From positions 12,598 to 76,597 of IMG/VR virus record IMGVR_UViG_3300001598_000004: DNA of 64,000 nucleotides, one strand, 5' to 3'. Source of the stretch: a virus. Taxonomy: Duplodnaviria > Caudoviricetes. The position numbers and the translations under genes were made by a program. Position 1 is the stretch's first letter. Every line of letters starts with the position of its first letter. Below are positions 9,857 to 60,169 of this stretch, piece after piece. A model generated the notes under the pieces. The model saw only the letters and a list, made by a program, of their open reading frames with translations, was not told where the DNA came from and made no database searches.

Positions 9857-9961
9857 AATTATATTAAACTAATCATTTCTTCTTAAAAAATATTAAAAAT
9901 TTGTTTATTTTAATGTTTTTCTGATTAGTTTAATATAATTTTACCCCATCAAACATTTTGT
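9857..9961 (+). promoter_or_regulatory. Early-type promoter/leader module with a 19-bp perfect inverted repeat
   Basis: AATTATATTAAACTAATCA (9857-9875) / TGATTAGTTTAATATAATT (9922-9940), followed by TAATTTTACCCCATCAAACATTTTG. Confidence 0.65.
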
Positions 9962-9984: not shown

Positions 9985-10095
9985 ATGGAGATTATCATCT
10001 TATCAGTTCTAACAGTTTCAGTAGCTTTCATTTTCGGAAGCATAATCGGTCAGGCAATTTACAATTACTTGGCAAAACTATTAAGTGACAAATGA
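9985..10095 (+). CDS. Small hydrophobic (single TM) peptide, 36 aa
   Basis: MEIIILSVLTVSVAFIFGSIIGQAIYNYLAKLLSDK; first ORF after the promoter module. Confidence 0.5.
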   Translation: MEIIILSVLTVSVAFIFGSIIGQAIYNYLAKLLSDK

Positions 10096-18640: not shown

Positions 18641-18780
18641 CTTAATTTCTCTTAAAAACATTAGTTTTCTACTAAAATTATATTAAATAATGATTAGTTT
18701 TCAATGTTATATGATTAATTCTATATAATTTTAGACCATCAAACATTTATCAACATTTTTAATCATAGGAGATTTACACA
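18641..18780 (+). promoter_or_regulatory. Early promoter/leader module
   Basis: CTTAATTTCTCTTAAAAACATTA (identical at 21734); TGATTAATT-N5-TAATTTTAGACCATCAAACATTT; TAGGAGATTTACA before ATG 18781. Confidence 0.7.
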
Positions 18781-18978
18781 ATGGCACAGAAGTTTTCTCT
18801 TGTCGGCATCGACGGCAACGCCTTTTCGATCATGGCTTACGTTTCATCTTGCATGAGGGAAGTAGGTTACACTCGCTCGGACGTAATCGAATATCGATCA
18901 TTGGCAACATCATCAAACTACCACAACCTTAACGTTGTAAGCGCAAGCTACATCGACAAGTGTAACAACAGACTTTAA
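18781..18978 (+). CDS. Small conserved phage protein (GNAF motif)
   Basis: LVGIDGNAFSIMAYV. Confidence 0.6.
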   Translation: MAQKFSLVGIDGNAFSIMAYVSSCMREVGYTRSDVIEYRSLATSSNYHNLNVVSASYIDKCNNRL

Positions 18979-19010
18979 TCATTAACATCTAAAAATAGGA
19001 GATTTACATT

Positions 19011-19922
19011 ATGACAACAACAGCAGTTTCTTCAATCATCGACGGTTCTCAGTTCTTTAGCTTTGAGAAGGTTCGCGTACAAGACATCACTTTCGATCAG
19101 CTCTGCCACACGGTCAAGGAGAATGACGTTAACACCCAACAGGCACTCAAGGGTATCTATCACTACGCCTTCATTCAGGAGGTCTTGGATATGTGCAAGG
19201 AGTTCGGTTACACCCCTGAGATTTACGATCTCTTCGCTGCTCAGAATAAGAACGGCAACACCCCTGGTGTTTCCCTCATCCCATTCATCGAGGAACAGAA
19301 GGGCGAGCGTCACGTTGAAGCACACCTTCTTCGTCGCGTATTCGCCAATGTGCGCCTTGTCGATTTCGACGATGAGGAAAATACCACGAACCTCTCTATC
19401 GCTTACTATCAGCGCGGTATTCAGGTCGGCTTCGGCAACATGGTCAAGATATGCCACAACCAGTGTATGCTCGGTGCGGATAGATACGCCAGCACCTATG
19501 GCGAAGGTGGAGACATGGGTCGCCGCGACTACAAGGAGATCCTTAGTGTCATCCGCAGCTGGCTCACCGACGCACGTCACATCGTTGAAACGGATCGCGA
19601 GCGCATTGAGAAGATGAAGGCTATCGACGTACCCGCAGAGCAGTGCTTCACCCTAATCGGTATGCTCACCGCAGCTCGAGTCGCTCACGATACTACTTTC
19701 AAGGAGATCCGCAAGCCTGACATCTACCCACTCAATCAGGCTCAGATTACCGACTTCACGGAAGATTTGATGCTCCGCTATCATCGCAACGACAGGGTAT
19801 CGGCTTGGGATCTTTACGATGCCGCTACCGAACTCTACAAGGCGAAGGCGATGGACATCCCTTCTATCCTTCCTCAGAATAGGGCAATGGTTGCATTCTT
19901 GGAGGAACAATTCGCATTCTAA
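19011..19922 (+). CDS. DUF932/DUF3871-like protein
   Basis: GIQVGFGNMVKICHNQC motif and C-terminal AWDLYDAATE helix; family assignment by recollection. Confidence 0.5.
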   Translation: MTTTAVSSIIDGSQFFSFEKVRVQDITFDQLCHTVKENDVNTQQALKGIYHYAFIQEVLDMCKEFGYTPEIYDLFAAQNKNGNTPGVSLIPFIEEQKGERHVEAHLLRRVFANVRLVDFDDEENTTNLSIAYYQRGIQVGFGNMVKICHNQCMLGADRYASTYGEGGDMGRRDYKEILSVIRSWLTDARHIVETDRERIEKMKAIDVPAEQCFTLIGMLTAARVAHDTTFKEIRKPDIYPLNQAQITDFTEDLMLRYHRNDRVSAWDLYDAATELYKAKAMDIPSILPQNRAMVAFLEEQFAF

Positions 19923-21733: not shown

Positions 21734-21861
21734 CTTAATTTCTCTTAAAAACATTAAGTTTTCTGTAAATTTTTATTAAGAATTAATCACTATCTAATCC
21801 AATCTGATTAGTTCTTTATAATTTTAGGACATCAATCATTTTAAACATAGGAGATTTAGAA
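21734..21861 (+). promoter_or_regulatory. Early promoter/leader module
   Basis: TGATTAGTT-N5-TAATTTTAGGACATCAATCATTTT then TAGGAGATTTA before ATG 21862. Confidence 0.7.
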
Positions 21862-23248
21862 ATGACACAGCAACTTTACATTGAGATTTCTCAGACCTTA
21901 AAAGGTATGGATCTCGTCGGTTACTCTACCAAGCAGATGAAGCAGACCTTACTCGCTCGCAAGACTTGGGATAAGGACATCAACCCATTCTGGAAGCGCG
22001 TCGACAAGGGAGAGTTCACTCTTCACGAATTCATGGTAGCTCTCCGCAAGGCTTTCAAGGAGTTCAAAAGCATATTCTATCAACCAGAGTCTTACGAGGC
22101 TTGGGGCGAAGAGATTTACAACAACTAAAGTCACACATAAATTTATTAGTTATGAAAAAGTACGTACTTTTTTGGGAAGATAAATGTTTTGAATTCTCAT
22201 CCCTTACAGAGTTAAATATCGACTATAATGAGCTTGGTCAGATAGTTTATGTAAGCCGTAAAGAATAACAGTTATGAAGCAAGACGACATCAACAAGTTA
22301 GGAACTATCGTTTCAAAGCTCGAAAACTTTATCGAAAGCCTCGGTGAGCAGATCGATAATCGCAACGACATCTACGACAATCGCTCGGAAGAATGGCAGG
22401 ATAGCGAGAAAGGTGAGGAGTACCAAGAAGAGACCGAAAGGCTCGAAGAGGACATGACCGAATTAGAGAACGCTCGCGATTACATTCAGGGCGTATTAGA
22501 CTTCTACCTCTAATAGGAGATTTACATTATGGAACACGCACTCATTAACATCGTATCAGCGAAGCTCATCAAGGGCATCGCTGATCTTTCAGTGAGCGAA
22601 GCTCGCTCATTCAACATCAATATTGCCGTCGGCAACCACAAGTACACGGCAGAGTATTTTCACGGCACTTTCGAGAAAGATGGATCTTACGACATCCTCC
22701 CTGGTATTCGCGTTTGTATTGATGACGCGCCTTACGGTCTTGGCGAGAAATGTCACGTTAACGTCGCTTGTCGAATAGACGCTATCGTAGCCAAGTCAGA
22801 CGAATACAAACGCCTACAAGACATCTTCGATGAACGATTAGAAAAATTAGAAAGGTTCATGCACGGAGATAAGTTTTAACCTACTAAATGAATGCTTATG
22901 TTACTACAGGAATTTATCGACCGCACAGGGTACTACCCTAATGACGTAGAATGGGAACGAATCACACAGGAGTATTCGGAGGGAAAAGACGACAAGGATC
23001 ATTTCTGCCGTAGATGGCGCAGACTCTCATTAAAAGGAGCTTCCGAACGCGCCGTCAACCTTCTCCTTCAAAAGAACATTCAAATCAAGGATTTGGAAGA
23101 GCATATCAAGAAGATCCAAAAGGAGCAAGCCGCATACAAGGACAAGGTTCGCAATCTTGAGGATGAGATCACGGCTCTTATGAGCGAACTACAAAAGGTT
23201 CAGCGCAACTTGATGCAACTATACAACAACCTCGCACCATTATCATAA
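21862..23248 (+). CDS. Hypothetical early genes (21862-22128, 22274-22513, 22529-22879, 22892-23248)
   Basis: Co-oriented ORFs; 22529 is preceded by TAGGAGATTTACATT. Confidence 0.55.
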
Positions 23249-25989: not shown

Positions 25990-26131
25990 GTTCTTAATGT
26001 ATCTTAAATTGATTAGTTTTCTACTTAAAATATATTAAGTTTTGATTAGTTTTTAATAGTAGTTGATAGAAAATTATTAATTTTAGAATGTCAAACATAA
26101 TTCATTCACTAATTAATAGGAGATTTACATT
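25990..26131 (+). promoter_or_regulatory. Early promoter/leader module
   Basis: TGATTAGTTT at 26010 and 26043; TAATTTTAGAATGTCAAACAT; TAGGAGATTTACATT before ATG 26132. Confidence 0.65.
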
Positions 26132-26524
26132 ATGGAGTCAAACTACAACCCTTACACACTACCTTGCGCTCCTTCTTTCACAATCGAGGAGGAAGAGGAA
26201 GAGCCAAAGCTCACACCAAAGCACAGGGATCTACTTAGACGTTTACAGACCCTATTTCCCGAAGCTAACATAGACGAAGATTTCATCCAAATGCGCAATA
26301 GAGGCGGTTGGGTGTATGCGGAAGGAGTAGGGATCTCTTACCGAAGAGTCACATCATCATACGCAGATGGTCCAGAATTTGACTACTCTAAGGAAATCGC
26401 ACAGATCCTTTGCAACTCAGGCTTCGAGGCAGCTGGCTACTACACAAGCGGTTGTGATGAGCGCAACTTCGAGAACCACGAAACATTCTACTACATCGAA
26501 ATTTCATCCATTAAATACCTATAA
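26132..26524 (+). CDS. Hypothetical early protein
   Basis: First ORF after the promoter module. Confidence 0.6.
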   Translation: MESNYNPYTLPCAPSFTIEEEEEEPKLTPKHRDLLRRLQTLFPEANIDEDFIQMRNRGGWVYAEGVGISYRRVTSSYADGPEFDYSKEIAQILCNSGFEAAGYYTSGCDERNFENHETFYYIEISSIKYL

Positions 26525-41097: not shown

Positions 41098-43053
41098 TTA
41101 TTTCTTGTTTACGAAATTCATAAACTCAGCACGGGTCTCAGCATCGTTCTTGAAAGCTCCTGTAAGGAATGATGAGGTCATAATACCCTTCTTCTTTACA
41201 CCGCGCATTTCCTTGCAAAGGTGTGAGCCTCGCATAACAAGAGCGATACCAAGAGGTGGATATTCTTCGCCAAGAGCCTTCTCAAGCATTTCTACGATGT
41301 CGTGCGTAAGACGTTCCTGCACCTGTAGTTTAGCAGCGCAATAGTCAACAACGCGACCAATCTTTGAGATACCGAGGATCTTGCCCTTTGGATTAGGAAT
41401 GTAAGCGAACCAGTAATGCCCGAAGAAAGGCATCATGTGGTGCTCACAATTATGGGTAAGAACGCCGTTGATGCAGAATGTGTGTTCGTTGTCACATTTG
41501 AAAGAATATACCTTAGTAGGCTTATCCACAAACTCAACACTAACAACTTCTACCATTTCGCTCTCGCCAAGGTCTATGTTTGCTTCGTACTTCTCAAAGC
41601 CATGCTTCTTGAACCACTCTTCACTTAGTACCTTCTTAGAGATATTGGTATTATAGACATCATGCTTAGATACTGCGCTCCGTATGCCTTTTACTCCGTT
41701 TCGTGACGCAACGCCCATGAAGTCACGCAATTCATTGATAAAGTCTTTATTTGTTGACATTATTCTATCATACTCCTGCTTTTCTCCGCGATAGCGAGTG
41801 CCGTCAGTATCAAGATAACCTTCAACAAAGCCTCTCCAACAATCATAGTTAGCCTTTACAATCTCAGGAAGGTGGAATTTCTGAGTCTTAGAGCCACAAC
41901 CAATAGATCCGAATGGAATGTTAAGCATCTTTAAGGTTCTGCGGGCAATCTCTGATGAAACAACACGAATGCGATATTGGATCATCTTACCACCGAAGCC
42001 GTTAGGCTTGCATATAGTTTCGATGTTTGCCTTATATCCAAACACGTTGTATAGAGCATCATAGAATTTACATGTCACCTCAGAATTGTTCGTTTCAAGA
42101 CAAATTCTTCTATCCTCTTGCACCGAGCATTCTGCTGCAACAACAGCAAGGAAATAGCCAAGTTTCTTTCCGACCTTAAAGTCATAATGCTTCTGGGTGA
42201 AAGTCTTTGGATTTATCCATTCAACTTTTCTGCCAAGCGAACTTCCTGCTTCTATCCACTCACCTTCTGAGCGCAAAGGATGATCCGCAGTAACGCTGAA
42301 TCTCTTACCATTGGCAAGAGTTATGTTTACATATCCATCTGCCTTATGTGTGGTAATCTCAGTGATTGTTGTTTGCACAGGAATGCCATTGACAATAGTC
42401 CAGAGCTTATCTCCTACTCTCTGGTCTCTTGCGCGATTTTTCTTCCCTACAGAGTTGACGCACTGAAAGCCTGGTACACACATAGAATAGTAGTCGCCCT
42501 CGTCGATAACCATTGAGTCGTAGGTTATACCATCCTCTCCATTAGGGAACACAGTAATCTTTGGCTTCTTTGTTTCATCGTAACCTCTGAATATCTCTGC
42601 CCACATACGGATGATGCGGTCAGGTGTGCCAAGCAAGCCTGTTCGATTTGGATCTTCGCCAATATACTCAAAAATGCGACGGATGTTATCTTCTACTGTT
42701 TCACCCTTTTCGTCAGGGAACACGATCCATTCTCCTTCTGGCGACTCAGCACCATAATATGTGCATTTGTCGGTAGAATAAGGACGGCAGAACACTACTG
42801 CTTTATCATACTTGAAGTAATTCTCAAGGGTAGCTCCTGAGTCGCAGATGTCATCAACGACAAGAATGTTGCTATAACTTAATTCGGTAAATACAGGCAA
42901 GTCAAGCAACTTTCCAAGTTTGATTGCAGGATAATAGCCACCGCGAGGTATGCCGTAAACGCCTGTATATTTCTTGCCCGATTGTTCAATCTTACAGGCG
43001 AGCTTATTGATGTAGGCATCGTAAAGCTCATATGTCAAAACTTTCTTTTCCAT
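41098..43053 (-). CDS. folE: Fusion: type I phosphoribosyltransferase domain + GTP cyclohydrolase I interrupted by an intein
   Basis: N-terminal YGIPRGG / VVDDICDSGATL PRPP-binding motif; FolE GEDPNRTGLLGTPDR, CEHH, SKIGR, QVQERLT, HLCKEMRG. Confidence 0.92.
   Translation of the reverse strand: MEKKVLTYELYDAYINKLACKIEQSGKKYTGVYGIPRGGYYPAIKLGKLLDLPVFTELSYSNILVVDDICDSGATLENYFKYDKAVVFCRPYSTDKCTYYGAESPEGEWIVFPDEKGETVEDNIRRIFEYIGEDPNRTGLLGTPDRIIRMWAEIFRGYDETKKPKITVFPNGEDGITYDSMVIDEGDYYSMCVPGFQCVNSVGKKNRARDQRVGDKLWTIVNGIPVQTTITEITTHKADGYVNITLANGKRFSVTADHPLRSEGEWIEAGSSLGRKVEWINPKTFTQKHYDFKVGKKLGYFLAVVAAECSVQEDRRICLETNNSEVTCKFYDALYNVFGYKANIETICKPNGFGGKMIQYRIRVVSSEIARRTLKMLNIPFGSIGCGSKTQKFHLPEIVKANYDCWRGFVEGYLDTDGTRYRGEKQEYDRIMSTNKDFINELRDFMGVASRNGVKGIRSAVSKHDVYNTNISKKVLSEEWFKKHGFEKYEANIDLGESEMVEVVSVEFVDKPTKVYSFKCDNEHTFCINGVLTHNCEHHMMPFFGHYWFAYIPNPKGKILGISKIGRVVDYCAAKLQVQERLTHDIVEMLEKALGEEYPPLGIALVMRGSHLCKEMRGVKKKGIMTSSFLTGAFKNDAETRAEFMNFVNKK
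41449..42480 (-). mobile_element. Intein (344 aa) with LAGLIDADG endonuclease in folE
   Basis: Begins CVPGFQ after YYSM; block B VTADHPL; FVEGYLDTDG; ends VYSFKCDNEHTFCINGVLTHN; +1 Cys of CEHH. Confidence 0.93.
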
Positions 43054-54670: not shown

Positions 54671-55400
54671 TTGTATCTTTCCTTCGGATAATGATGCCGA
54701 AATCCCTTCACTCCGACTCGATATGCAGCCAGAGTTCGTTGACATCCCTTTTGTTTGTTTCGGAGAACAGAAGCGCACCTTTCAAATGAATGGCTGCGGT
54801 ACGCTCCATTTCTACACCGACGATTATCGTTTCAGTGTGTTGTATGAGCATCCAGAGAAGATCCTTCAACATAACCCTCGTAATATCGTAGAGCCAAACT
54901 TCTCATTGTTCAATGAAATGCCTATCGCGTTTGGTCTGCAAGCCATTTACAAGAAGCGTTTTATTTCGAGAGCTATGCAAGAGCGAGGAATCAGAGTGTT
55001 CGTGGATCTGAATGTTTCTGCGAAGTTCTATCAACTCAATCTACTTGGCGTACCACAGGGGTATTCTTCATTCTGTACTCGCGGATATTCTGACCGTATC
55101 AACTACTTACAATTCGAGTATGAAATGGCAAAATCTATTGCAGGCGACAATCCGCTTACTTTCGTCATATACGGCGGTGGCAAGGTGTGCAAAGATTTCG
55201 CGAAGCAGAACGGATGTATCTACATCACTCCTGTCGTTACAATGAAGAAGTCTTTGAAGGCTCTTGATAAGATTGGCAACAACATCGCTTTCTTCGGACA
55301 GCAGTTTAGCGTTGAGAATCTTGTAGAAGAGAAAAAGAAGCAGATTACTGATAATCAGATGTTTGACTTTAGAGAAGGACAGAAACTGATAGAGAACTAA
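54651..55400 (+). CDS. DUF4417 family protein
   Basis: LHFYTDDYRF, PNFSLF, MQERGIRV motifs. Confidence 0.7.
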   Translation: MDTYIPDCIFPSDNDAEIPSLRLDMQPEFVDIPFVCFGEQKRTFQMNGCGTLHFYTDDYRFSVLYEHPEKILQHNPRNIVEPNFSLFNEMPIAFGLQAIYKKRFISRAMQERGIRVFVDLNVSAKFYQLNLLGVPQGYSSFCTRGYSDRINYLQFEYEMAKSIAGDNPLTFVIYGGGKVCKDFAKQNGCIYITPVVTMKKSLKALDKIGNNIAFFGQQFSVENLVEEKKKQITDNQMFDFREGQKLIEN

Positions 55401-55404
55401 GTAT

Positions 55405-55515
55405 CAAATCTTAAAATATATTAAATCTTAACTTACTCACTGTCAGATAGTTGTGAGTCTGAGATCTTTTTATTAATTTTAGACCATCAAACATTTTAAC
55501 ATAGGAGATTTAACA
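55405..55515 (+). promoter_or_regulatory. Early promoter/leader module
   Basis: TAATTTTAGACCATCAAACATTTTAACATAGGAGATTTAACA before ATG 55516. Confidence 0.7.
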
Positions 55516-55911
55516 ATGAAATTCAACTACAATGACGGAGGTCGTAGCAAGTACTTTAGAGCTACAAATGTCGGTGATTGCGTTACAAGAGCTATCGCTA
55601 TTGCAACACAAAGAGATTACAAAGAGGTGTATAACGAAGTTGCAAAGATATTAGGCTACTCTCCAAGAGACGGAGTGAAGCACCAACACACAAGAAAGGT
55701 CGTCGAGCACTTCGGTGGTAGATGGACAGCATTAATGGCTATCGGCACAGGTTGCAAACACCACCTTAAAGACGGAGAGATCCCGATGCAAGGCAATATC
55801 ATCTGTTCCGTATCTGGACACCTTGTAGCCGTCGTAAACGGCGTGATAAACGACCTTACAGATTGTAGCCGAGGCGGCACACGTTGCGTCTATGGTTACT
55901 GGATGTTCTAA
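55516..55911 (+). CDS. Small papain-like (C-H-D) peptidase-fold protein
   Basis: GDCVTRAIAIA...SGHLVAVVNG.IND. Confidence 0.5.
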   Translation: MKFNYNDGGRSKYFRATNVGDCVTRAIAIATQRDYKEVYNEVAKILGYSPRDGVKHQHTRKVVEHFGGRWTALMAIGTGCKHHLKDGEIPMQGNIICSVSGHLVAVVNGVINDLTDCSRGGTRCVYGYWMF

Positions 55912-55912
55912 A

Positions 55913-55968
55913 TGTTTATTCGTAGGTTGCGACATATTTGCAACCTACGAATTTTCTTACTACTTTTG
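55913..55968 (+). promoter_or_regulatory. Late-type promoter TGTTTATTCG-N38-TACTTTTG, overlapping a 12-bp hairpin
   Basis: TGTTTATTCG 55913-55922, TACTTTTG 55961-55968; TTCGTAGGTTGC/GCAACCTACGAA stem. Confidence 0.7.
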
Positions 55969-55998
55969 CAGAAATTATCAAATATAACACATAACAAT

Positions 55999-56434
55999 AT
56001 GGGAAAACAGACAGGAAGCACTCGCAGTTCAAGTAGTTCCTCTCCACGTGGGATTAGTGCACCTACAGGCAGTATGGGGGGGTAGAAAAATGAGTTCACC
56101 TTCTTTTACAGTAGAAGATTTCGATAAGAAAGTAGACAAATTACTTAGCTCACCTTATGGATGGCAAGGAAATACACGCCAACAGTTCATTGACTTAGGT
56201 ACAGCAAAAGGACAGAAACTTGGTCACGCTACTATTACGAAAGCTTCATATGTGGACGAGGACGGAAATAGGCGAACCGCTTATATACCTACGGCAAGTG
56301 TTGGCAAAGAACAGGTTGTTACAGATATGAACCCTATCTATATTTCATCAATGCAAGGAGCAAAAGATTATGCTCTTGATGCTATTAGGAAGTACCACCA
56401 GAAAGAATTTGCTAAGAAGTACAAGCGAACCTAA
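55999..56434 (+). CDS. Hypothetical protein split by a G7 tract (55999-56085 + 56048-56434)
   Basis: ATG 55999 frame stops at ATG GGG GGG TAG; removing one G joins it to the downstream frame. Confidence 0.5.
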
Positions 56435-56502
56435 CTCTTAATTTATGCTAAAATTTGCCGCATAATATAGCGACTTTATAATTTTCTGATTATATTTGCA
56501 AC

Positions 56503-56598
56503 GATTTTCAAGGAGTTCTTCGCGAGAACGAACTCCTTTCTGTAAATCTCCTACAAAATGTTTGACCCGAGCGCATATCTTTTTATGCGCTCTTTTTT
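56503..56598 (+). ncRNA. Candidate trans-acting antisense sRNA (~95 nt)
   Basis: TATATTTG box 56491-56498; 5' hairpin 56510-56538; unpaired core TGTAAATCTCCTACAAAATGTTTGA 56541-56565 complementary to early leaders; terminator 56569-56598. Confidence 0.7.
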
Positions 56599-56624
56599 AT
56601 AGAACCTAATAAATTATATGCTAC

Positions 56625-57083
56625 ATGGACGACAGTATATTAGAGCAGTTAGTGGTAAACTTATCAGAACAAGTAAAGAATCGTGATGCCTTGATTGACC
56701 GCATCATCTTCGCGATGGCTGAACAGACCAAGACAAGAAACGAGCAGATGAATAACCTTCTCAACGTCATAACCGAAACAAATAGAGTTATGGCAGAAAG
56801 GGGTAAAGAGTCTGATGATAGGATGCGTATCGTCAACACTATGGTACACAACCTTATTGACGATTACAAAAATACCCACGAAACATATCGTGAGCATTTA
56901 GAGAAATTAGAGAAAGACCACGCAGAGATAAAAGAAGAGAAGCAGAAACTACTAACCTCTTTGGATCGCCTTGTGGATAGAGTAGAACAGGCAGAAATGA
57001 CCAACAACCAGCTCTTACAAATGATTAAAGAACTTGCAATACAGAAAGCTGCAAGCAATAATATCAATATCAATAAGAGGTAA
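56625..57083 (+). CDS. Coiled-coil hypothetical protein
   Basis: 152 aa helical ORF just after the sRNA terminator. Confidence 0.55.
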   Translation: MDDSILEQLVVNLSEQVKNRDALIDRIIFAMAEQTKTRNEQMNNLLNVITETNRVMAERGKESDDRMRIVNTMVHNLIDDYKNTHETYREHLEKLEKDHAEIKEEKQKLLTSLDRLVDRVEQAEMTNNQLLQMIKELAIQKAASNNININKR

Positions 57084-57534
57084 GATGCGATCGGCAGTGT
57101 TCGCACAACAACTTCTTACAATACGGAAATAATGCCCTTGCTATGTCGCCTATTAAGTAGCAAGGTTCTTCCCCACATTCGGGTATTCCACATTCGTCTG
57201 CAATGTATTGTTGTAGATGGCGTAGCTCATGCACGATAGAGTCGAAGAACTCCGCAGAAGAAGAGGTGATGCTTGTAACCAATACCGCCTCCCTTCTCTC
57301 CTTATTCCCATAACATAGTCCACTATCCAAATCGCCTGATATGAGGTTTTTGTGCGCTTTCAGGATAATTTCCTTTGGCGCACCAATTCTCCGCATCACA
57401 TCAAGGATTTCGTAGGTATAATAGGTATCTACGGCAAAGAATACGTGTAGAGTCCAATCATATTTTGGGATATGGATCAAAGCGTCTATCATAGAAGATC
57501 CTCCCAATCTATCGGCTCGCCTTTCGCGATGCAC
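57070..57534 (-). CDS. HExxH motif protein (likely start ATG 57492)
   Basis: IVHELRHLQQ. Confidence 0.55.
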   Translation of the reverse strand: MHRERRADRLGGSSMIDALIHIPKYDWTLHVFFAVDTYYTYEILDVMRRIGAPKEIILKAHKNLISGDLDSGLCYGNKERREAVLVTSITSSSAEFFDSIVHELRHLQQYIADECGIPECGEEPCYLIGDIARALFPYCKKLLCEHCRSHLTSY

Positions 57535-60169
57535 TTCTGCAACCAGTAGCGGAATGGCAATTCATCACTACCATCTATGTCATCAAGGGTATCCTTAACG
57601 AAAAGAGCAACGTGTACCTCTTCTGGAACACTCGACTTATAGAGGTCAGCTTTGCACCAGTTCGCTTGATATGTTGCATCATACATTATGTTATTTTCAA
57701 GCTGCACTCCATACTTTGTAAGGAGCGTTTCGACCTGTTCCTTAGTCCACGGCTCGATAGACTCAACTTTACCCGATGAAGGATTCTTCTTCTTCATCGC
57801 TTTTACAGCTACGTCGCACGCTTTTTTGTTGAAGTGAAAGCCGTAAGAAGAGATATACGCACGCATTGCAGGTGGCATATCATCGTATAAATCTAAAGGT
57901 AAATGTTTCATAACTTGCTTTTTTTACAGATTGGGTCTGAAAAAGTCCGAAATTCAGACCTTCCCAGACCCTACTTTTTAGTTATACATTGAGTATCGTC
58001 CAGTGCCACGTACACCGCGACGATCTCCGTAAGCCTCCCAACGATCACCATAAGGTGACATAGGATAGTGACGCTCGCCCATGTGGTCATAGTCCTCACG
58101 CATACCCATTCGGTCGCCGTATGGGTAATCCATTTCACGCATACCAATGCGCTCGCCCATTTCAGGCTCTTCGCACATCTGAGATAATCGTGACATCACC
58201 TTACCGAAGACGTGCAGACCATCTTCTACCATTCCCTTGAGTTCTTCGGTCTTGGCTCTTGGTATCTTAATAATAGTTGTTGCCATAATTATGTTTCCTT
58301 TCTTGATTTGTTTGTAGAAGAAGATGAACTCTCAGCAAGCCTTTCATTCAGCAATGCAATTGTCTTAGACATTTGTGCCATTTGGGTTCGCATTTCTGCC
58401 ATTTCCTTATCCCTCTGAGCCTTCTCCTGCTGTTCAGGATTGAGTTGAACTATGAGAGCATCAATACTCTTGACTCTCTGGTCGTGGAACGGAACTGCAT
58501 TGATGTGATTGATAGAGTCCTGCTTCATAGAAAGCAGAGCATCATTCAAAGCCTCTTTGTCGCAAGCAACGATGACCTCTTCACCAGTTGTAGGGTTCAT
58601 AGCTTTGGCAGTCGCAGAGTTAGGATTGATGCCTCTATACGGCAAGCTTTTATCCCCTACTCTTATGGTTACATCAATAGGATACGATGGCATATTTGGA
58701 TAGTACCCCATCAATGGCATATTCGGTATTGACTCTACTACTCCGTTGTCTATCGTAGGAGTGGCTGATGTAGAATGTATGACATAAACATTACTACCTT
58801 GTCTTAACTGATTGAACATCTTCTTTTGTTTTTACTGTTAATACTAAACCACAGCAGAAACCACTTCAACTATGTCTTTACTAAAGTCATAGAAAACAAG
58901 GTCATACTCTGGTACGGTTATATCCTCTGCTACCAATGGTTGACCTCCAGCCTTTGTAACAGCCTTGCGCGAACCGCTGACACCTCTTGTTTCAAAGTAA
59001 ATTGGTGTTGTGGCTGTTGTGCCTGTTGGTGCTGCCTTTGTAAAGTGAATAAGCAAAAGACCATTGTAAGGACTGTTAACAAACGGATGGTTCTCAAAAA
59101 TGTATGTGAGAGTATTGTTCGAGAGAACTGCATCAATAGTCTCAAGTCCAAATATGCCGCGCTTATTAAATGCTATAGGAAAAGCCATGAGTTACCTCCT
59201 TTCTTAGCCAAAGATACCAGCACCATTAAGACCAAACTGACCAGCACCATATCCGTAGAGCTGCCATGCAGGTACTCCTACAAGGTTAGGATACTGAACT
59301 GTGGCAGTACTTGGCAGTTTGCACTGAATATCACTTACCGCCTTGAAGAGTGGCGCAATTTCAGCCTGACGTTCTGCACGCGCTGTCAAAGATGCAACCT
59401 GTGCTGTAAGAGCATTAATCTCACGATCCTTGCGAGAGTCCTCGATAGCGTCGAGTTTAGCGAGAATCTTACCTGTGTTGTCAGTGTTGTTCTGACGAGT
59501 AGCGCATGACTGCTCTGCGAGAGCATAACCAAGCTGACTAAATCCACGCTCTACTCCAACATTTGTCTGGTTGAAGCCGTTAAGCATTGAGTTCTGAATA
59601 TCCTTCTGTCCGAGCTGATTTTGGAAGCCCTGCTGCGTGATAGCATCACGAAGAGTGCAACAGCAGTTAGCGAGCTGAGTCTGGAGTGCGTTGTTGCCCT
59701 GCATGATAGCCGTCAATGTCTGATTGAAAGACTGCCCCTGGTTAGCAGAAAGCGCACAAATGTCCTTGCTTACACCATTGATAGCAGCTGTGATAGCGTC
59801 AGCAGATGTGTTTGTCATGTTAGCCAATGACTGAATATCTACGCCGTTTCTCTGGAGCATCTGCATCAGGAGCTGAGTGTTTGAGTCGTTGTTAATCATA
59901 TTTGGAAGCGCACAACCGCCACCATTACGATTACCACCAAACAAGCCGCCACCCCAACCATTGTTACCAAAGATAGCTGCAATGACAATGAGGGCAATAA
60001 TGTCGCTCAAGCCGTTGTTGCCGAACGCGCCACGATTAGAGCACATAGCGATAAGAGAAGGATCTACGCCCTGCTTTTGGAGAAGGGCTGGAAGCATCGC
60101 GAGGATGCCGTTAGTGCTATTGTTGCCGTCGTTGACAACATAGCAATCTGAGTTAGGTACATATCCCAT
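57489..60169 (-). CDS. Five-gene cassette of unknown function (57489-57911, 57978-58286, 58289-58819, 58844-59188, 59204-60169)
   Basis: Co-oriented, low-complexity Met/Gln/Gly-rich proteins; the first has an NCCC motif and coiled coil; TACCTTTG box at 60239-60246 (-). Confidence 0.6.

Follow-up and report, generated by a model that had tools for sequence, protein, structure and literature searches.

What is the function of a short unit in a phage genome whose exposed core is the reverse complement of the leaders of several early genes of the same phage? The unit occupies positions 56503-56598 of a 64,000-nucleotide (nt) stretch of Caudoviricetes DNA, here called the window, which corresponds to bases 12598-76597 of one 76,597-base virus record (IMGVR_UViG_3300001598_000004); all coordinates are positions in the window, except that the prefixes L050:, L149:, L054: and G002: mark coordinates on the sequences of relatives. 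An initial annotation proposed that the site encodes an antisense small RNA (sRNA) that silences a dispersed set of early transcripts. Our comparisons indicate that a conserved RNA-like unit is probably present at 56503-56598, and we lean, though less firmly, toward the view that it encodes a phage sRNA that represses the early leaders. In particular, the conservation of positions 56541-56565 speaks for an RNA that works by base pairing and against an inverted remnant with no function.

The -7 box, the 5' hairpin, the core and the terminator hairpin with its T6 run all lie where the initial annotation had placed them (Table 1). The predicted transcript folds into the 5' hairpin, a largely unpaired core and the terminator hairpin followed by T6, with a minimum free energy (MFE) of -32.3 kcal/mol and a z value of -6.7. 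The 25-nt core had been described as unpaired, and most of it is so in the MFE structure, the exception being five bases of its anti-ribosome-binding-site (anti-RBS) module that pair with the 5' end of the RNA. The terminator scan identified positions 56569-56592 on the + strand only, and the T-run serves this strand alone; a + strand stem followed by a T-run likewise ends the unit in each of the three variants that we compared, namely the window and the diverged relatives L050 and L149, which come from independent samples. At the level of the motif, all three also carry a TAnnTTTG box 5-6 nt before the predicted start. The promoter 13-mer at 56490-56502 is identical to three early promoters of the more distant relative G002, which argues that it is a real and strong promoter. 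The claim that the unit contains no open reading frame (ORF) stands in a qualified form: a mechanical 37-aa ORF with a TTG start spans 56496-56609, but the small ORFs of the three variants differ in start, frame and length as read from the sequences, and none of them is conserved.

The two modules of the core correspond to two separate pieces of the early leaders. The 13-mer complementary to the anti-RBS module has exact + strand copies at 18766, 18996, 22514 and 26117, each located 2 nt before an ATG (18781, 19011, 22529 and 26132, respectively), and copies with one or two mismatches at 21848 and 55502, before the ATGs of 21862 and 55516; its single exact copy on the - strand is the module itself at 56541-56553. 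Allowing up to two mismatches, the 13-mer has 10 matches as compared to 2.3 expected, and none of 100 shuffles reached 10. The 12-mer complementary to the other module is exact at 9949 on the + strand and at 56554-56565 on the - strand and has near copies at 18739, 21832 and 55487; taken alone, it is not enriched (16 matches versus 10.9 expected). It represents the 5' module of the leader, which begins 5 nt after a shared 9-mer early box that is found on the + strand at five sites (9936 with one mismatch, 18726, 21819, 26078 and 55474), and the gap between the two leader modules varies from 1 to 18 nt. Both sets of complementarity had been described in the initial annotation and are confirmed here, as is its statement that the site read on the - strand is not another copy of the leader, since the homology comprises the two modules only, without a promoter box or an ATG.

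Table 1. Positions of the candidate sRNA unit, its predicted targets and the adjacent segment upstream.
Feature	Position	Strand	Description
Promoter of candidate sRNA	56488-56502	+	Bacteroidota-type -7 box TAnnTTTG at 56490-56497
Predicted sRNA, ~95-96 nt	56503-56598	+	Start predicted from -7 box; end at T-run
5' stem-loop	56510-56538	+	-14.1 kcal/mol
Anti-RBS module	56541-56553	+	Exact reverse complement of the 13-mer preceding four ATGs
Anti-5'-end module	56554-56565	+	Exact reverse complement of the 12-mer just 3' of the early promoter box
Intrinsic terminator	56569-56598	+	9-bp GC-rich stem plus T6
Predicted target leader, gene 55516-55911	55474-55515	+	Early box, 5' module, 4-nt spacer, RBS module
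Predicted target leader, gene 26132-26524	26078-26131	+	Box, 5' module, exact 13-mer; duplex -25.2 kcal/mol
Predicted target leader, gene 18781-18978	18726-18780	+	Box, 5' module, exact 13-mer; duplex -24.2 kcal/mol
Internal initiation region, gene 19011-19922	18996-19010	+	Exact 13-mer; duplex -19.6 kcal/mol
Predicted target leader, gene 21862-22128	21819-21861	+	Box, 5' module and 13-mer with one mismatch each; duplex -20.6 kcal/mol
Internal initiation region, gene 22529-22879	22514-22528	+	Exact 13-mer; duplex -21.2 kcal/mol
Early box with match to anti-5'-end module	9936-9961	+	Box with one mismatch; 13-nt match; no 13-mer
Intrinsic terminator after early gene 55516-55911	55918-55952	+	Separates early transcript from late-type gene and sRNA
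Late-type cassette gene	55999-56434	+	Late-type promoter; no terminator before sRNA unit

To place these matches among all possible phage targets, duplex energies of the core were ranked over the start regions (-70 to +20) of 113 phage genes, to which the ranking is confined. The six leader genes hold six of the top seven places, with energies of -19.6 to -25.2 kcal/mol as compared to a median of -11.3 kcal/mol, and none of 1000 shuffled cores reaches the observed duplex energy. For the leader of gene 55516 the value is -24.7 kcal/mol in this ranking and -24.0 kcal/mol in a run restricted to the leaders. The ranking restates the complementarity, yet no other large set of phage genes competes with these six. 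Leaders resembling a Shine-Dalgarno (SD) sequence precede only 6 of the 113 genes in a simple ORF list, the others having A-rich, SD-free upstream regions, and no function was recognised in the products of the six. These six genes may form a translation class of their own, translated perhaps by ribosomes that lack bS21. The early box at 9936 is followed by the 5' module but no 13-mer, and the first frame behind this promoter is a strongly hydrophobic 36-aa ORF (9985-10095).

Relatives that retain the unit are rare. A DNA similarity search against 50,697 phage records gave no match, and searches with exact and degenerate core patterns in three collections (viral_contigs, metagenome_contigs and genome_contigs) returned only chance matches in unrelated coding regions or at ordinary gene starts on the opposite strand. 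Other relatives, traced by way of the portal, the nuclease or remoter homologues of the 55516 protein (G001, G002, L002-L016, L051-L059 other than L054, and also L147 and L148), are without the leader system and the element. L054, a Logan contig (SRR17543912) from a strain-level relative that is ~96% identical to the window, has 575 other bases in place of 56019-56432, and is 100% identical over 56433-56624, the whole sRNA unit included; the ORF that follows shows five differences, each of which falls on a third codon position. A search for homologues of the 55516 protein revealed a second lineage, L050 and L149 (80% protein identity; samples ERZ28436099 and SRR15401334), which is syntenic with the window from an SbcC-like gene to the nuclease and a 132-aa gene. 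In both members the unit directly follows the 132-aa gene and closes a rightward unit; its -7 box and 5' hairpin precede a core of 22-25 unpaired nt, which is succeeded by a + strand terminator.

Comparison of the three variants indicates that the core is a conserved island within changing surroundings. Its mean unpaired probability is 0.55 in the window fold, 0.77 in L050 and 0.81 in L149. In L050 and L149 an unrelated stem-loop takes the place of the window's 5' hairpin (15-16 of 29 positions identical), and the two hairpin types could not be put in common columns by MAFFT. Terminator identity between variants is 19-20 of 37 positions: the L149 terminator is homologous to that of the window, with one compensatory change of an A:T to a T:A pair, and the L050 terminator is a third, unrelated sequence. 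L149 and L050 thus differ within the unit though their neighbouring gene is identical at 388 of 399 positions. Both anti-leader blocks persist in window, L050 and L149 despite this shuffling of hairpins and terminators.

The cores also bear marks of their own leaders. The leader of the L050/L149 lineage matches the window leaders over the first nine bases of the 5' module and departs from them beyond these, as it does again at the close of the RBS module. The L050 core contains a 12-nt exact complement of the 5' module of its own leader, including the base changed in this lineage; an 'ATCA' variant of the RBS module occurs in the leader and in both cores of the lineage; and the window core has four extra bases that lie exactly opposite the T-run of the window leaders. 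On the L050 leader, the cognate duplex reaches -23.6 kcal/mol, versus -18.8 kcal/mol with the window core. These correspondences suggest that the core follows, in part, the leader of its own lineage. The promoters tell a related story: the sRNA promoters of L050 (L050:6236-6262) and L149 (L149:6363-6390) are near copies, extending into the first transcribed bases, of the early promoters of the same contigs (L050:5680-5712 and L149:5679-5711, respectively). An ACC versus ACT difference between L050 and L149 is common to their early and sRNA promoters, and this shared C/T difference indicates that the promoter copies are homogenised at the DNA level by concerted evolution.

The phage itself is a temperate gut phage whose host is probably of Bacteroidales type; its gene content includes an integrase and a portal as well as a replication module and a 7-deazaguanine pathway. 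Its portal is only ~35% identical to the portals of Porphyromonas, Riemerella and Bacteroides phages, a Bacteroidales metagenome-assembled genome contains a homologue of its nuclease, most of its genes have A-rich, SD-free upstream regions, and its promoters are of the TAnnTTTG type; judged from these features, the host very probably belongs to the Bacteroidia. A further Logan contig, L049, is 100% identical to the record and bridges its ends, with a 99-base overlap (genome 76499-76597 and 1-99). Because it spans both ends, the record is a closed, complete and circularly permuted 76.6-kb assembly; L049 is the same phage and was not counted as an independent relative.

A number of observations weigh against an sRNA that represses the early leaders. 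In the MFE structure, the first five bases of the RNA pair with AAAUC of the 13-mer module, leaving the RBS module only partly free. Only one leader is known for the L050/L149 lineage on the available contigs, and its pairing with the cores is imperfect, one stretch comprising 10-12 bp and a second 7-8 bp that include a bulge or a G.U pair. The initial annotation had proposed covariation of seed and target as a check, and the two relatives divide on it: the L050 core matches the changed leader base, whereas in L149 a C-to-U change in the leader meets a G-to-U change in the core, giving a U.U mismatch that is not compensatory. For three of seven window leaders the predicted duplex with the L050 core equals or exceeds in strength that with the window core, which makes specificity unclear, and gene conversion could mimic part of the tracking between leader and core. 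Relatives that keep the leaders without the core had been named as counter-evidence from the start. L054, L050 and L149 all keep the core; in G002 the same SD-like 8-mer precedes 10 genes, yet the 90% of its genome that was covered shows no clear anti-leader, indicating that the SD-like motif functions without such an RNA. Ribosomes of Bacteroidia have been reported to be SD-blind, except when they lack bS21 (PMC7797042, PMC9976891), and the translational effect of masking the 13-mer in an SD-blind host is uncertain. Lastly, a search of sequencing runs listed no RNA run containing the phage.

With these points in mind, the action of such an RNA can be pictured as follows, where transcription of the sRNA, its start site, its action in trans, the repression and its timing are what we infer. 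An sRNA of ~95 nt would be transcribed from the host-type -7 box promoter and stopped at its own intrinsic terminator, leaving 20-25 nt exposed between a protective 5' hairpin and the terminator. The exposed core would be antisense to two pieces of the 5' untranslated region (UTR) of six early genes, namely the first dozen transcribed bases and the extended SD-like initiation region, and pairing at -20 to -25 kcal/mol would form two helices of 10-13 bp on either side of a variable loop, one helix over each of these pieces. This pairing would block 30S binding and/or tag the mRNAs for decay, such that the dispersed early regulon would be turned down together. The core would also end up in the 3' UTR of any + strand read-through transcript, originating from the late-type gene in the window and from the early gene in the relatives.

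The arrangement of the unit bears on when it would act. The initial annotation had offered silencing in lysogeny or shut-off of the early phase. In L050 and L149 the promoter of the unit is itself a copy of the early promoter, and transcription of the early gene upstream can continue into the unit, which argues for co-expression with the targets rather than for an RNA made in lysogeny only. Considered with the window, where a host-type promoter is positioned behind a late-type gene, these arrangements point to co-expression with the targets or accumulation after them. A delayed shut-off or damping of the early genes fits better than a lysogeny-only immunity RNA.

The same read-through allows an account in which the core is a cis-acting 3' UTR element and not a free sRNA: the tail of a + operon mRNA would pair with its own or a sibling leader, and the -7 box would be incidental. 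Since no + strand terminator separates the early gene from the element in L050 and L149, leader and anti-leader there lie on one transcript; the late-type gene of the window also lacks a terminator before the element, so the core would sit in the 3' UTR of the 55999-56434 mRNA, and the element always stands at the end of a rightward unit. On this point the initial reading has to be amended; the discrete unit that it proposed is supported by the conservation of the design in three variants and by the place of the leader genes as top predicted targets. However, the -7 box is kept at the same short distance 5' of the hairpin in all three variants though their surroundings differ, a terminator stands between the window's early gene 55516 and the element, and the window mRNA that carries the core has no matching leader, and we regard a cis-acting element as rather unlikely. 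Recombination among early-gene modules might instead have left an inert inverted remnant of a promoter-leader cassette, by chance within the terminator region and with no function of its own. The region is indeed mosaic, with a cassette swap that ends exactly at 56433 and shuffled hairpin and terminator modules, the leader cassettes are repeated 5-6 times in the genome, and on the - strand the core reads as a shortened 55516 leader. A neutral remnant, however, should decay together with its surroundings, whereas both anti-leader blocks have been kept in L050, whose two hairpins cannot be aligned with those of the window; the inverted homology omits the promoter box and the ATG, the promoter, the unpaired presentation and the terminator are retained in all three variants, and the unit in L054 is identical beside a replaced gene. 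This origin therefore seems improbable.

The modules could also act at the DNA level, as sites for a phage or host DNA-binding protein or as recombination linkers that work in either orientation. Such a role would accommodate the imperfect dyad of the 5' module (CAAA..TTTG) and its location at the promoter, the repressor-operator-like motif seen just upstream of four early boxes, and the recombination breakpoints that adjoin the element. It is nonetheless very improbable: the second module is an SD-like region 2 nt before ATGs that also occurs at the promoterless internal genes 19011 and 22529, which is an RNA-level feature, a spacing of 1 to 18 nt between modules is unusual for a single protein site, and the 1-kb segment between the inverted copies (55487-55514 and 56541-56565) shows no inversion in L054, L050 or L149. 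An invertible segment was rejected for lack of any inverted form in these three relatives. A single-strand RNA-binding protein would not bind the reverse complement. Finally, the sRNA may be real and act otherwise, by activating or stabilising early mRNAs, by acting mainly on host mRNAs, or as a sponge titrated by the abundant early leaders. Pairing at the extreme 5' end of an mRNA can protect it from 5'-end-dependent decay. Moreover, covering an SD-like motif need not inhibit translation in an SD-blind host (PMC7797042). Against this, the helix over the initiation region stops 2-4 nt before the start codon, within the ribosome footprint, and the leaders are AU-rich and, as read from the sequence, have no evident inhibitory structure to open; we consider such alternative actions distinctly improbable. 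An RNA selected for pairing with the leaders is the simplest account, because the core persisted while the flanking hairpins changed and because a DNA site is unlikely.

The predicted sRNA resembles C4 of phages P1 and P7 and the CI RNA of P4, which are short phage antisense RNAs whose two exposed seeds pair at two places in a phage leader or initiation region and so keep lytic functions off; C4 was reportedly described by Citron and Schuster in 1990 and the P4 CI RNA by Deho and Ghisotti. Here too, two seeds (the 13-mer and 12-mer modules) face two leader sites, which lie 4-18 nt apart, although the analogy is one of mechanism only. An Rfam scan of 55000-58000 at E values up to 10 produced only chance matches of miRNA or snoRNA type and no family, with C4-type models included, so homology to C4 or CI was not found. 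C4 is released by processing from a transcript that also carries its only target operon, icd-ant, and the P4 CI RNA causes premature termination of one operon. In contrast, the candidate has a promoter and a terminator to itself and six predicted targets that are dispersed, its seeds face both the 5' end and the RBS, and its host is from another phylum, and its sites are spread over the genome at 9.9, 18.7, 19.0, 21.8, 22.5, 26.1 and 55.5 kb.

Similarities to other systems are more partial. MicL- and DapZ-type sRNAs and GibS of Bacteroides have an intrinsic terminator and an unpaired seed for the initiation regions of several mRNAs, and arise from an internal promoter at the 3' end of a coding unit. 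The candidate likewise combines a terminator, an unpaired seed and its own promoter at a coding-unit 3' end, but differs from these bacterial sRNAs in that the regulator and all predicted targets are phage-encoded, these targets have a duplicated leader cassette in common instead of short seed matches that arose independently, and pairing would extend over 25 nt in two modules. Maps of Bacteroides sRNAs have been published (PMC7366714). The repeated promoter and leader cassettes before small early ORFans, with their module shuffling, also recall the PeSL cassettes of T4-type phages. These were reportedly described by Arbiol et al. in 2010 as repeated before small early ORFans and as points of recombination, and we know of no antisense counterpart to them, whereas the extra unit described here carries the transcribed part of the cassette in reverse. 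In T4, early shut-off after transcription involves RegB, which cuts GGAG in SD sequences, and RegA, which binds ~30 translation initiation regions (PMC3014915). As with RegA and RegB, one phage factor would read a feature common to many early initiation regions; unlike these proteins, the candidate reader is an RNA that would recognise the 13-mer and 12-mer through Watson-Crick pairing.

It is conceivable, if doubtful, that the six genes are a special translational regulon in a host whose ribosomes normally disregard SD sequences, that the 13-mer is kept identical as an address tag and not for ribosome binding, that a co-evolving anti-SD-like RNA gates the regulon by pairing simultaneously with 5' end and start region, and that cassette and reader spread and recombine as a matched pair. 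Were this so, the unit would be an RNA counterpart of T4 RegA and RegB and the first self-targeting multi-target sRNA regulon in a Bacteroidota phage. To our knowledge, the phage antisense RNAs described so far have one or two neighbouring targets, and the only factors known to shut off early genes together after transcription are proteins, T4 RegA and RegB. If one RNA recognised a duplicated leader cassette in front of six scattered genes, it would give the phage a compact and evolvable programme timer, and the first regulatory RNA described for Bacteroidales phages, whose hosts, as far as we know, have unusual translation initiation and no Hfq. The design could be reused as a programmable multi-gene switch in Bacteroides.

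The genes that flank the unit have features of their own. A G7 run (56076-56082) interrupts the late-type gene 55999-56434, so that 28 aa at the N-terminus are read in one frame and a body of 114 aa in another; at the equivalent place, L054:559-1143 is an intact ORF of 194 aa that has its first 16 residues in common with the 55999-56434 product and an unrelated body. The N-terminal tag, M-x-K-x-x-G-x-T-R followed by a Ser run, also heads tandem genes in G002 (25025 and 25658), L148 and L151. The ORFs 56090-56434 and 56625-57083 are ORFans, the latter having no homologue among 5.8 billion proteins. It is nevertheless probably a real gene, because all five differences in L054 fall at third codon positions, and a -7-like box 8-9 nt before its ATG suggests that its mRNA may be leaderless. 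An attenuator or anti-terminator for 56625-57083 was considered and dropped, as no alternative pairing with the terminator arms was seen by eye.

Two further non-coding segments were noted in the relatives. Between the sRNA terminator of L050 and the convergent leftward genes, L050:6420-6490 contains two GC-rich hairpins with near-identical arms (CCCTACGC...GCGTAGGG). In G002 (IMGVR_UViG_3300045988_063733), the 740-nt intergenic region at 40717-41456 carries an orphan SD-like motif at 41227 (+) that lacks a start codon. Beyond the motif come a -7 box and ~90 nt of structured sequence ending in a T-run, which may be another phage sRNA.
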